Origin: Escherichia phage Pandora71
Direction: 5' to 3' (one strand)
DNA length: 44,696 nucleotides
Sequence record: PV841870.1
Shown here: piece after piece, positions 41,999 to 44,404 of the stretch
How positions within the stretch are numbered: position 1 is the first letter of the stretch
Layout: each line of letters begins with the position of its first letter
Position numbers and translations under genes: made by a program
Notes under the pieces: generated by a model
The model's database searches: none
The model's input: only the letters and a program-made list of their open reading frames with translations
What the model was told of the DNA's origin: nothing

Positions 41999-44263
41999 AT
42001 GAGCTTAATTAAATTCGCTGTAACCCGACCCGCTAAAAAAGGCGAAAAAGCCAGGGCGGAAAACTTCCAGATGACTACCGAAGAGTTTTTCGAATTTATC
42101 AATGATGCGAAAGAAATCTCCTCGGTGCATATCAATAAGACGGAAGATAAAGCCGAGTATGCGCGCCGCAAGCGTAAGGCCGATGGCATCGTGGCGTATA
42201 CCAGTGACGGATTGCGTCGTAAGACCAGTGCGGTGGACCGCTCGATCCTGTTCTTTGATATTGACCGCACCGACACCCGCACTTTACGCCGCTGCCGTAA
42301 GGCGTTCATCGACGCGGGACTGGAGCACGTCTTCCACACCACAACCGGCGACCGCCACCCGCTGAAAGGAGGCACGCGTTGCGCTCGTTTCCTGGTGCTC
42401 ACTGACAAGCCTGTCCCGGCGGAAGACCTGGGCCGCGTACAGTATGCACTATTACACCAACTGGGCCTGTCAGATGTGGACTTCGATGATTGTACGAAAG
42501 ACACAAACCGCCTTATGTACCTGCCCCACCAGCAATCGGTTGTTAAGTGTCACTACGGCAAACGTGCCCGCGTCCGTCGTCTGCTTCGCCTGGCTGATAA
42601 GCTGGGAGTGGAAAAAGAGGAAGTACGACGCGAACTGACCCAGGGCGATGACGGCGTGGCGGACGGCATTCTGGATTGGTGCTTCCAGGCAGGATTTGAA
42701 CCGCTGTCGTCCGGTCGTGGTTATGAAGTGCCATGCCCGAACGAACACCTGCACAGCGGCGAAGGGTCCACCGCGATCATGGTTAAGGATGGCGAGATCC
42801 GTTTCAAGTGTATGCACACCGGCAACGAGTGTTGCTCGGAACTGAACAGACACCAGCACCTGGCGCTACGTCTTATCGGGATCCCGGACCACCTGAACGT
42901 CGAACCGCACAACATGTCACGTAAGCAAATCGCCGCCATCCTTCCGGGACTGGACGACGAGGAAGTGGAATCGTGCTATGAACATATCGTTGATGCGGTT
43001 GGCGACGGCGACGAGTACGGCGGATGTACGGACGCAGACCTGGACAACGAGCCGGTTGCGCTGTTCAGTAAGCACGACCCGATCATAGAAGGCCTGATTA
43101 ACTTTAAATCAACCTGGTATCTCGCCGGTGAGTCGAACATTGGCAAGTCGTTCTACGTGCTGGGCCAGATGGCGTCAGTATCTGCCGGTATTCCGTTTGG
43201 CGGGGCGAAGGTCGTCCAGTGCCACAACTTCTATTTCGATGCGGAAGGCGGCGAAGCCTCCAACCAGCGTAAGGAAGCATTGCAGATTAAATACGAGCAC
43301 GACCTGGACAAGCTGCACATTATCGATCTGCAATCACGCGGCTGGGATATCACCAGCAAATCGGGCTTGCGTGAAGTTATCAGCTTCATCAACCGCACCG
43401 CTAACGGCGAACCGGTTGGCCTGGTGGCGTTCGACTCACTCAACCAGACTGTTGCGCTGCGGTCCGCCGATGCCAAACCGTTCGATGAGAACAACGCCAG
43501 CGATATGGGAGAAGTGGTCAAAGCGCTGAAAGCCATCGCGGAAAACACAGGTGGCAGTGCGGGCGTCATCCACCACCCGGCGAAGGGTGCGAACGGCAGC
43601 AGAACCCCACGCGGGTCCGGCGCACTGCATGGCGCTGTCGATTCTGCGTTCTTCCTGGAACAGCCTGACGACAACCAGCCCGGACAACTGAACCTGTATC
43701 ACGAGAAGGCACGTAACGGCATCAAGCAAGCGCCGCGCGGCTTCGTCCTGCTCAAGTGCAAAGTTAAGGTTGATCTCCGCAAGTCCGAGGCGTTCGAATC
43801 GCACCAGTCCACCAGCACCGGGCCTGACTTCGGCGATGTGGTTGCCGGTTGGGACGTCAAGCCAATTGCATCCACGCCACGCGACGAGACTCTTTACCTC
43901 ATACCGGTCGCCCTGGCACCGTTCGCCATCGAACAGGCGAAGGCCGCGGGCAAGGCAGCAGTTAAGGAAGAGAACGCCGCAGGTCCGCGCAACGAAAAAG
44001 AGAAAGTGCTTTATGCAGCGCTGGAAAAACTGATGGAAGATAACCCGGACCATACCGGATTCAGTAAATCGGCAATTGTCCGCCAGGCGGGATTGGCAAA
44101 AGGTGGCACGTCGACGAAGGCAATCGACGATATGGTCGAGCGCGGCGTACTCGGTTTTTATACAGATCCGCACACCGGGGCCATTTATGGGTCGTCGAAT
44201 ATCGTCATAAAAACTAGTATACCCATCACGCTTTCGGCGACCGATGACGATTTAAAAGATTAA
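41999..44263 (+). CDS. primase-helicase (AEP/prim-pol-like N-terminus, zinc-binding segment, RecA-like ATPase, C-terminal DNA-binding-like tail)
   Basis: 754 aa; FFDIDR (DxD), Cys/His cluster 42720-42850, Walker A GESNIGKS, Walker B-like LVAFDSL. Confidence 0.8.
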   Translation: MSLIKFAVTRPAKKGEKARAENFQMTTEEFFEFINDAKEISSVHINKTEDKAEYARRKRKADGIVAYTSDGLRRKTSAVDRSILFFDIDRTDTRTLRRCRKAFIDAGLEHVFHTTTGDRHPLKGGTRCARFLVLTDKPVPAEDLGRVQYALLHQLGLSDVDFDDCTKDTNRLMYLPHQQSVVKCHYGKRARVRRLLRLADKLGVEKEEVRRELTQGDDGVADGILDWCFQAGFEPLSSGRGYEVPCPNEHLHSGEGSTAIMVKDGEIRFKCMHTGNECCSELNRHQHLALRLIGIPDHLNVEPHNMSRKQIAAILPGLDDEEVESCYEHIVDAVGDGDEYGGCTDADLDNEPVALFSKHDPIIEGLINFKSTWYLAGESNIGKSFYVLGQMASVSAGIPFGGAKVVQCHNFYFDAEGGEASNQRKEALQIKYEHDLDKLHIIDLQSRGWDITSKSGLREVISFINRTANGEPVGLVAFDSLNQTVALRSADAKPFDENNASDMGEVVKALKAIAENTGGSAGVIHHPAKGANGSRTPRGSGALHGAVDSAFFLEQPDDNQPGQLNLYHEKARNGIKQAPRGFVLLKCKVKVDLRKSEAFESHQSTSTGPDFGDVVAGWDVKPIASTPRDETLYLIPVALAPFAIEQAKAAGKAAVKEENAAGPRNEKEKVLYAALEKLMEDNPDHTGFSKSAIVRQAGLAKGGTSTKAIDDMVERGVLGFYTDPHTGAIYGSSNIVIKTSIPITLSATDDDLKD

Positions 44264-44373
44264 ATTTTGCGCGCATTGGTTGCCAATATGGGAATTCCCA
44301 TATCGCTAAACGATTAAAATTTGCGCGCATTGGTTGCCATTTTGGGTGTTTTTATCTGGTCGTATTGGTTGCC
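44262..44373. repeat. iteron-like direct repeats with central 18-bp palindrome
   Basis: near-identical ~30-bp repeats ending ...TTTGCGCGCATTGGTTGCCA... at 44262-44292 and 44317-44346, third ATTGGTTGCC at 44364-44373; perfect palindrome ATATGGGAATTCCCATAT 44286-44303. Confidence 0.7.
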
Positions 44374-44404
44374 GTGTTGTGTAAATATAATGAATAGTTA
44401 TGCA

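Follow-up and report, generated by a model that had tools for sequence, protein, structure and literature searches.

Where does DNA replication begin in the Dhillonviruses, for which, as for the Guernseyvirinae, we found no mapped origin in the literature searched? The question is raised here by the intergenic region that follows the gene for a 754-residue primase-helicase in Escherichia phage Pandora71 (sequence record PV841870.1), whose 44,696-nucleotide stretch, referred to below as the window, represents an almost complete Dhillonvirus (HK578-like) genome. The window matches 158 phage records at 80–95% identity, nearly all of them Escherichia Dhillonvirus, HK578-like siphophages of ~44–45 kb. 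The original prediction proposed an origin beside this gene at 44262–44400, composed of two iteron-like direct repeats around a palindrome and an A/T-rich stretch. Our analysis keeps the neighborhood and the A/T-rich stretch, but finds that the wrong elements had been named as iterons. Judged from the sequence and its comparison with relatives, the region is probably a replication origin (we put this at roughly 0.55), in which a set of octamers would act as iterons and the predicted repeats would be flanking operator sites.

The module downstream of the primase-helicase gene

Close relatives continue uninterrupted over the end-to-start junction of the window, and positions 44264–44696 and 1–100 therefore form one contiguous intergenic region of ~530 bp, which separates the primase-helicase gene from the next rightward operon. 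Within it, and starting 128 bp downstream of the gene, lies a module of ~195 bp (44391–44586; module 1) that consists of a leader, an octamer array and a hairpin. The features of this region and of related elements elsewhere in the window are shown in Table 1. Comparisons with close relatives were made on an alignment of the window and 15 relatives (16 loci).

Table 1. Positions of the candidate origin elements, the boxes and the associated genes in the window.
Feature	Position	Strand	Remarks
109-aa helix-turn-helix protein gene	41659..41988	+	opens the replication operon; may bind the ATTGGTTGC boxes
754-aa primase-helicase gene	41999..44263	+	N-terminal AEP primase, zinc-binding motif, RepA-like helicase, C-terminal winged helix (predicted)
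Direct repeat copy 1	44253..44292	+	holds box 1 ATTGGTTGCC at 44275-44284; part of the 54-bp tandem duplication ~44252-44305
Perfect 18-bp palindrome ATATGGGAATTCCCATAT	44286..44303	no strand	central EcoRI site; inside the variable duplication
Direct repeat copy 2	44307..44346	+	holds box 2 at 44329-44338; ancestral single copy
Box 3 ATTGGTTGCC	44364..44373	+	invariant in 16/16 loci; 35 bp from box 2
A/T-rich stretch, candidate DNA-unwinding element	44375..44424	no strand	TATAAT 44386-44391, 15-mer TGAATAGTTATGCAG 44391-44405, TGCATAAACTA 44412-44422
Octamer array, candidate iterons	44424..44526	+	GCGGGACA at 44424, 44436, 44452, 44462, 44510, 44519; inverted GCGGGACG 44477-44484
Long inverted repeat/hairpin	44532..44580	no strand	18 predicted pairs, hypervariable loop
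ACGGCAGC	44607..44614	+	strand-biased 8-mer that recurs across the genome
Box 4, inverted (GGCAACCAATGCG on the + strand)	44645..44657	-	13/13 complementary to copies 1 and 2; invariant in 16/16 loci
Boxes 5 and 6, next-operon promoter	40..79	+	TTGCAT (44-49), 17-nt spacer, TATATT (67-72); gene start 101
Two partial units upstream of module 2	16345..16475	+	TGCATAAACTA then GCGGGACAGGCGGGAC/GTCCCG..GTCCC(GC) palindromic octamer pairs
Module 2	16476..16670	+	A/T-rich leader, six octamers and an inverted copy, same hairpin; between tail-chaperone and tape-measure genes

The octamers lie just outside the coordinates of the original prediction. Four direct copies of GCGGGACA and then an inverted one stand to the left of a G/C-rich spacer, with two further direct copies to its right, all within 103 bp. 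Among 31 module copies taken from 16 genomes, the octamer columns are 94.6% conserved compared to 80.1% in the spacers (permutation test, p<1e-4). The array thus has the arrangement expected of iterons, with at least three clustered direct repeats conserved against variable spacers. Because the octamers are conserved in this way, and because in other lineages they are swapped in concert for other 7–8-mers (see below), they appear to behave like iterons.

The leader that precedes the octamers reads TGAATAGTTATGCAG...TGCATAAACTAA. The A/T-rich segment that had been predicted is present, with 76% A+T over 50 bp where the genome averages 45.6%; it shares the highest A+T content of any 50-bp window and falls in the top ~0.01–0.02% of windows. 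Its composition is that of the A/T-rich segment of an iteron-type theta origin, and an unwinding element here is plausible. The TATAAT reported within it is also present, as TATAAT or TATAGT, in 15 of the 16 loci. DnaA-box and IHF consensus sequences were sought by eye only in 44375–44425, and nothing above 7/9 was seen. At the other end of the module, the hairpin has invariant stems and a loop that varies in both sequence and length, with one compensatory pair, which is weak structural evidence; no T-tract follows it, and the scan did not flag it as a terminator.

A second copy of the module is located in the tail operon. Modules 1 and 2 are 72% identical and both were found in 158 of 158 Dhillonvirus records, module 2 with at least 80% coverage in 151 of these. 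Octamer clusters are found at 44424–44526 and at 16354–16610, the latter extending into the partial units upstream of module 2, whose minus strand is flagged as terminator-like at 16454–16434 and 16375–16355.

Primase-helicase homologues at 44–68% identity all have a gap of 300–650 bp downstream of the gene, and in nine other lineages the module layout there is collinear, with each lineage having its own 7–8-mers. L021 (68% identity) has the octamer and the hairpin of the window, with inverted boxes, and L029 (also 68%) is collinear and has the same hairpin, with GTGTGGCA at every octamer position. The Cornellvirus VSiP has two copies of TGAATAGTTATGC, then four of GGGGGAGA plus an inverted copy, and a G/C hairpin; L025 and L026 have two copies of TGAATAGTTATGCAG (one with a single-base change in L025), followed by five to six of AGGGATAA plus an inverted copy and a hairpin, and no box cluster. 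GGGGATC pairs are found in L023, TTGCGA-type repeats in L022 and L027, and TTCCGCAC in L028. The leader 15-mer TGAATAGTTATGCAG, exact or with one or two changes, recurs in L021, L029, VSiP, L025 and L026, a set that spans 44–68% helicase identity. On this comparison the conserved core consists of the leader 15-mer, a lineage-specific 7–8-mer array and the hairpin, and the boxes are accessory. Moreover, the type of octamer goes with the type of recognition helix in the winged helix of the primase-helicase, GGGAT being found with RRPA, TTGCGA with Y-x-K and GGGGGAGA with RYK, and no such agreement is seen for the boxes.

Attempts to extend this series gave little. A scan of viral contigs for GTGTGGCA pairs proved non-specific, a hairpin-arm scan recovered only the 16 Dhillonvirus-type genomes already compared and no further 68%-identity relatives with a second module, and a search for homologues of the last 155 residues by word matching returned a single fragment. 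The Kagunaviruses were considered as a test of the octamer model and set aside as uninformative; a Cro-like gene and GTGAATAGT-containing promoters, with no octamer array, follow their helicase gene. In L018 (4356–4845) and L019 (4463–4537) this Cro-like gene is on the opposite strand downstream of the helicase gene, and is flanked by near-consensus promoters (TTGACA/TTGATA, a 17-nt spacer and TATAGT/TAATTA) with GTGAATAGT(T/A) in the spacer. One of these promoter spacers contains the palindromic GTGAATAGTTCAC, and the core GAATAGTT is common to the Kagunavirus promoters and the Dhillonvirus leader 15-mer.

We note that the region immediately downstream of module 1 also contains one copy of ACGGCAGC. 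This 8-mer occurs 31 times in the genome compared to 2.4 expected, with 23 copies on the plus strand, in three reading frames and every ~1–1.5 kb (for example at 538, 4721, 7215, 14516, 21081, 27788 and 44607), and in the related lineages examined the module is likewise followed by an exact or near-exact copy. It is a strand-biased motif at the level of the DNA; could it act as a priming site, a Chi-like signal or a modification target?

In some GenBank records module 1 is covered by an annotated hypothetical protein (open reading frame 44321–44575; L001 3420–3647, Bas84_0054). We rejected it as a gene, as its frame is broken by frameshifts or stops in six of 15 relatives and its start codon is variable or absent; the annotation is probably a spurious gene call.

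The predicted repeats and a dispersed box

The two near-identical direct repeats that had been predicted are present and are longer than claimed, at 40 nt with 90% identity, the copies being in 54-bp register. The perfect palindrome between them is the longest in the window; one of 18 bp is expected 0.18 times per shuffled genome, so that it is unusual, but by itself not compelling. The third ATTGGTTGCC is likewise where it was reported. Repeat copy 1 begins before the helicase gene ends, within its final codons (stop codon at 44261–44263), and because the 54-bp unit to which it belongs starts inside these codons we interpret the unit as a recent tandem duplication.

Conservation of this layout in related phages, which had been suggested as a check, is not observed. 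In the alignment the 54-bp unit with box 1 and the palindrome is present in only seven of the 16 loci and absent from nine, and where present the palindrome is perfect in just two of seven, the other five having one arm mismatch. Repeat copy 2 is found in 15 loci and is partly deleted in L008, where box 2 is lost; except for this loss, boxes 2, 3 and 4 are kept while their flanks vary. The number of boxes beside the helicase gene ranges from one to three among near-identical phages, and the spacings between boxes 1 and 2 and between boxes 2 and 3 are 54 and 35 bp. An iteron-type theta origin has at least three origin-specific initiator-binding repeats in helical phase, and the ATTGGTTGCC repeats do not have this form. 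The interpretation of the direct repeats as iterons is therefore not upheld: they contain a box that is dispersed over some eight promoter regions, their layout is that of a variable 54-bp tandem duplication, and L025 and L026 have the module without a box cluster. The two repeats around the palindrome represent a strain-level duplication of little importance.

The 9-mer core of the box, ATTGGTTGC, has 14 exact copies in the genome compared to 0.46 expected, and none of 100 shuffles reached 14. Copies away from the module are at 40/71, 10754/10768, 26863, 30058, 31958/31975, 34932 and 41459, with one-mismatch partners at 30046, 34920 and 38554/38570; eight of the 14 exact copies are outside the module region, mostly at promoters. 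The six boxes within ~530 bp around the module are the densest cluster of the genome, with three direct boxes on the left (two in most relatives), one inverted box on the right, and two at the next promoter. Box 4 (44645–44657) and the boxes at 40–48 and 71–79 had not been included in the original prediction.

Sigma-70-like promoters called by the scan tool overlap boxes at 10789–10760, 30068–30040, 38592–38564 and 41481–41452. The last of these, on the minus strand, is the best promoter of the scan (TTGACA-18-TATCAT) and has a box in its spacer. The TTGC(A) of the box can also be read as a -35 hexamer at 40, 31975, 34932 and 41459, lying 17 nt (16 at 41459) from TATATT, TATCTT, TATAGT or TAATTT; a correctly spaced TAnnnT is found for four of the 14 boxes, compared to 3.4% of all TTGC sites. 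The ATTGGTTGC(C/A) boxes are thus found in promoter spacers, over the -10/+1 region or at the -35, and in both orientations, which is operator-like behavior. Boxes 5 and 6 illustrate this, with one at the -35 and the other over the -10/+1 region of a promoter that we read from the sequence, its -35 being under the threshold of the scan tool; across the 16 loci they are conserved, except that three loci have single-base changes. Relatives L021 and L022 retain boxes at promoter-like sites.

The four module-side boxes have C instead of A at position 10, and a check of TAnnnT spacing found no workable -10 for those at 44275, 44329, 44364 and 44646, the TAnnnT being wrongly spaced or missing. They therefore lack the -35/-10 pair 16–18 bp apart that a sigma-70 promoter at a box would have, and could be binding sites without being promoters. 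A match to CytR, sigma-54 or MotA-box sites was considered and rejected, since the conserved part ATTGGTTGC mismatches those consensus sequences, and a literature search with the box motif returned only primer sequences.

Several of the box-containing promoters have further features. On the minus strand at 31983–31890, a promoter-like TTGCAT-17-TATCTT pair with two boxes precedes a G/C hairpin and T-run (aagggtgtccggttggacgcccttttt), a ribosome-binding site and an ATG; this series of promoter, terminator-like hairpin and gene suggests an attenuator, and L021 has a matching arrangement at 479–400. A gene of ~254 codons on the minus strand (9966–10730) lies within the plus-strand head/tail block and has its own promoter with the boxes at 10754 and 10768; TATATTGGTTGCACACCAAC is common to this promoter and to that at 67–86. 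The divergent control region at 41435–41700 contains the strongest consensus promoter found (41481–41452) and two more leftward promoter-like sites, and deletions in HK578 that escape the OLD defense map to the equivalent region (10.64898/2026.07.10.737580).

Two proteins encoded by the replication operon are candidates to act at these sites. The 754-residue protein has a helicase of the RepA/AAA_25 type by Pfam and an AEP primase by fold match, and a winged helix is predicted at residues ~660–739 (DNA 43976–44215); the region thus has a nearby candidate initiator gene with a predicted sequence-specific DNA-binding domain, as iteron-type origins do. The 109-residue protein has Pfam matches to HTH_23, HTH_28 and Sigma70_r4_2 at residues 65–105, and its helix-turn-helix (HTH) is invariant in the window, L021 and L029, the three lineages that share both this protein and the TTGGTTGC box; in other lineages a Cro-like protein takes its place. 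In HK578 the equivalent gene is gp45 (10.64898/2026.07.10.737580). The protein is annotated as a transposase in Bas84 and in PHROG 9366, but it has only a short HTH (HTH_23/sigma-70 region 4-like) and heads the replication operon, and is thus more likely a regulator.

The origin reading and its alternatives

In the mechanism that we propose, the ~195-bp module 1 would be the core of the origin. The winged helix of the 754-residue protein would bind the CGGGACA octamers and oligomerize, the leader at 44375–44424 would melt and the helicase would load, and the AEP primase would then prime, possibly on the 18-pair hairpin once extruded, much as RepB' uses ssi sites. The boxes would be operators for a phage regulator, most simply the 109-residue HTH protein, and would couple early transcription to the origin or insulate it from it. 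By analogy with SPP1 oriR or P4 crr, module 2 at 16.5 kb might serve as a further origin, enhance replication or form a fork barrier.

Several observations weigh against this interpretation. The octamer spacings of 12, 16, 10 and 9 bp correspond only roughly to one helical turn and have no regular phasing. The GC skew follows gene orientation, with a minimum near 40–41 kb, and does not point to 44.4 kb. A/T-rich stretches in this genome also mark ordinary promoters. The octamer of L029 differs from that of the window, yet its winged helix is about as close to that of the window as is the winged helix of L021, which shares the window octamer; the pairing of protein and octamer is therefore not clean. 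The TTGGTTGC box is found in the window, L021, L029 and L022, with GTTGGC(A/T/C)GC variants in L023, VSiP and L027, and these variants lie around the 3′ end of the helicase gene or downstream of it in three of four cases in VSiP, five of five in L023 and six of six in L027, which fits an origin role for the boxes themselves. Lastly, L022 has the TTGGTTGC box together with a Cro-like HTH protein and not the 109-residue protein, and the latter is thus only a candidate for the box binder.

The strongest of the alternatives, albeit an unlikely one, is that the region serves transcription control only and contains no origin; the boxes would be operators, a promoter would lie at TATAAT 44386, and the hairpin would end or process the helicase transcript. 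The operator-like boxes at other loci, the retention of TATAAT or TATAGT, the coincidence of A/T-rich segments elsewhere with promoter regions, and the position of the region between two operons are all consistent with this. However, a scan of 43700–44696 on both strands found no relevant sigma-70-like promoter or terminator, the sole TTGC-type -35 lies just 11 bp from TATAAT 44386, and the hairpin lacks a T-tract. The module also occurs within the tail operon, in which termination would do harm, and the lineage-specific octamer arrays in both orientations are left unexplained.

We regard as slightly less likely again the explanation closest to the original prediction, that the ATTGGTTGCC repeats are themselves initiator iterons, bound by the primase-helicase and also regulating Dhillonvirus promoters, with the octamers doing something else. 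Initiators are known to double as promoter repressors, as do P1 RepA, DnaA and SV40 T antigen, and the genome's densest box cluster flanks the module; in VSiP, L023 and L027 the box variants near the 3′ end of the helicase gene also form left and right sets that are oppositely oriented. Nonetheless, more than half of the exact copies are elsewhere and mostly at promoters, the copy number beside the gene varies among near-identical phages, the spacings are not iteron-like, and L025 and L026 dispense with the cluster. Furthermore, the box is the same in the window and L022 despite different recognition helices, and differs between L022 and L027 despite similar ones.

Two remaining explanations seem improbable. 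The modules could be used in a DNA transaction other than initiation, whether for packaging recognition, as recombination hotspots or as barriers to the replication fork, and there are indeed two copies per genome with one in the late region; but the terminase subunits of L021 are of the P22/Sf6 headful type, for which pac sites are normally in or near the small-terminase gene, and the fixed place by the primase-helicase gene across genera together with the A/T-rich leader points to initiation. A fork barrier does have a parallel in SPP1 oriR, which has been proposed as a barrier that triggers the theta-to-sigma switch (PMC6316719). Equally doubtful is that the module encodes a cis-acting RNA for antitermination, processing or stability, with the upstream repeats as its promoter or operator: both modules are co-oriented with flanking genes, and conserved stems with a hypervariable loop and a compensatory pair would suit an RNA, but an Rfam search of 44200–44696 gave only a chance microRNA match, both modules fold no better than shuffled sequence (z of -1.1 and -1.9), the octamers also occur inverted and as zero-loop palindromes, and their sequence is swapped wholesale with positions kept, as expected for protein-binding sites.

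If the region is an origin with octamers as iterons, a broader and more tentative reading can be entertained, in which the Dhillonviruses and their relatives have modular two-site origins with a fused initiator composed of a RepB'-like primase, a RepA-like helicase and a winged helix. As parts of this same tentative reading, iteron specificity may have been switched wholesale between lineages (CGGGACA, GTGTGGCA, GGGGGAGA, GGGATAA, TTGCGA and TTCCGCAC), the tail-operon module may be a partner like SPP1 oriR or P4 crr while the ATTGGTTGC operator regulon gates origin firing, and the melted hairpin and palindromic octamers might be the structures sensed by OLD or Lamassu defense.

The last of these suggestions relates to recent work on HK578, which escapes OLD defense through mutations in the helicase-primase and in the gp45-46 promoter, and for which it has been proposed that OLD senses hairpins at phage origins (10.64898/2026.07.10.737580). 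A candidate origin with coordinates for the leader, octamers, hairpin and second copy at 16.5 kb makes this idea directly testable. The lineage series of swapped octamers also provides a natural experiment in initiator-iteron specificity, and two annotations would be corrected, in that the module-spanning hypothetical protein is probably no gene and the 109-residue 'transposase' is more likely a regulator.

Comparison with known replication origins

Dual origins offer the first parallel. The Bacillus phage SPP1 has two origins, oriL and oriR, each with direct repeats and an A/T-rich DNA-unwinding element, of which oriR interrupts the late (virion) gene order and the other is at the replication genes (PMC6316719). 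Here there are likewise two similar elements that combine repeats with an A/T-rich segment, one after the primase-helicase gene and the other in the late region, between the tail-chaperone and tape-measure genes. The candidate initiators differ, since SPP1 uses a separate origin-binding protein, G38P, with a loader and a DnaB-type helicase, and its oriL lies inside gene 38, whereas here a single AEP-primase/RepA-helicase/winged-helix protein would be the initiator and the module is downstream of its gene. We found no sequence relationship to the SPP1 origin system, although no search aimed at G38P homologues was made.

The repeats of the satellite phage P4 are octamers, TGTTCACC, in two separated cis elements, ori and crr, and short repeats are found in two separated cis elements here too. 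In the P4 alpha protein a single polypeptide unites primase and helicase and recognizes the short origin repeats through a winged helix at its C terminus (PMC4234260). The enzymes are of other types, with a Toprim primase and an SF3 helicase in P4, in contrast to the AEP primase and RepA-like helicase here.

The IncQ plasmid RSF1010 shares, by fold and Pfam matches, a RepA-type helicase and a RepB'-like AEP primase with these phages. Its oriV has iterons, A/T- and G/C-rich segments, and ssi stem-loop priming sites (PMC4234260), and the candidate origin here would combine elements of these same kinds. RSF1010 nevertheless relies on three separate proteins, its iterons of ~20 bp are recognized by RepC, and it has two ssi hairpins, one on either strand. 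In the phage, by contrast, the candidate initiator is a single fused protein, the repeats are 8 bp long and each module has one long hairpin; the replication operon showed no RepC-like gene.

The gene order resembles that of the archaeal plasmid pRN1, whose origin is downstream of its primase-helicase gene and includes a stem-loop (PMC4234260). In both cases a small DNA-binding regulator (orf56 in pRN1) precedes an AEP-primase/helicase/winged-helix protein (orf904), with the origin, here a candidate, immediately downstream; pRN1 differs in having an SF3 helicase, no iterons, a 100-nt stem-loop and an archaeal host. The architecture downstream of the Dhillonvirus primase-helicase gene is thus one that would work like the SPP1, P4 and IncQ origins, but belongs to none of these families.

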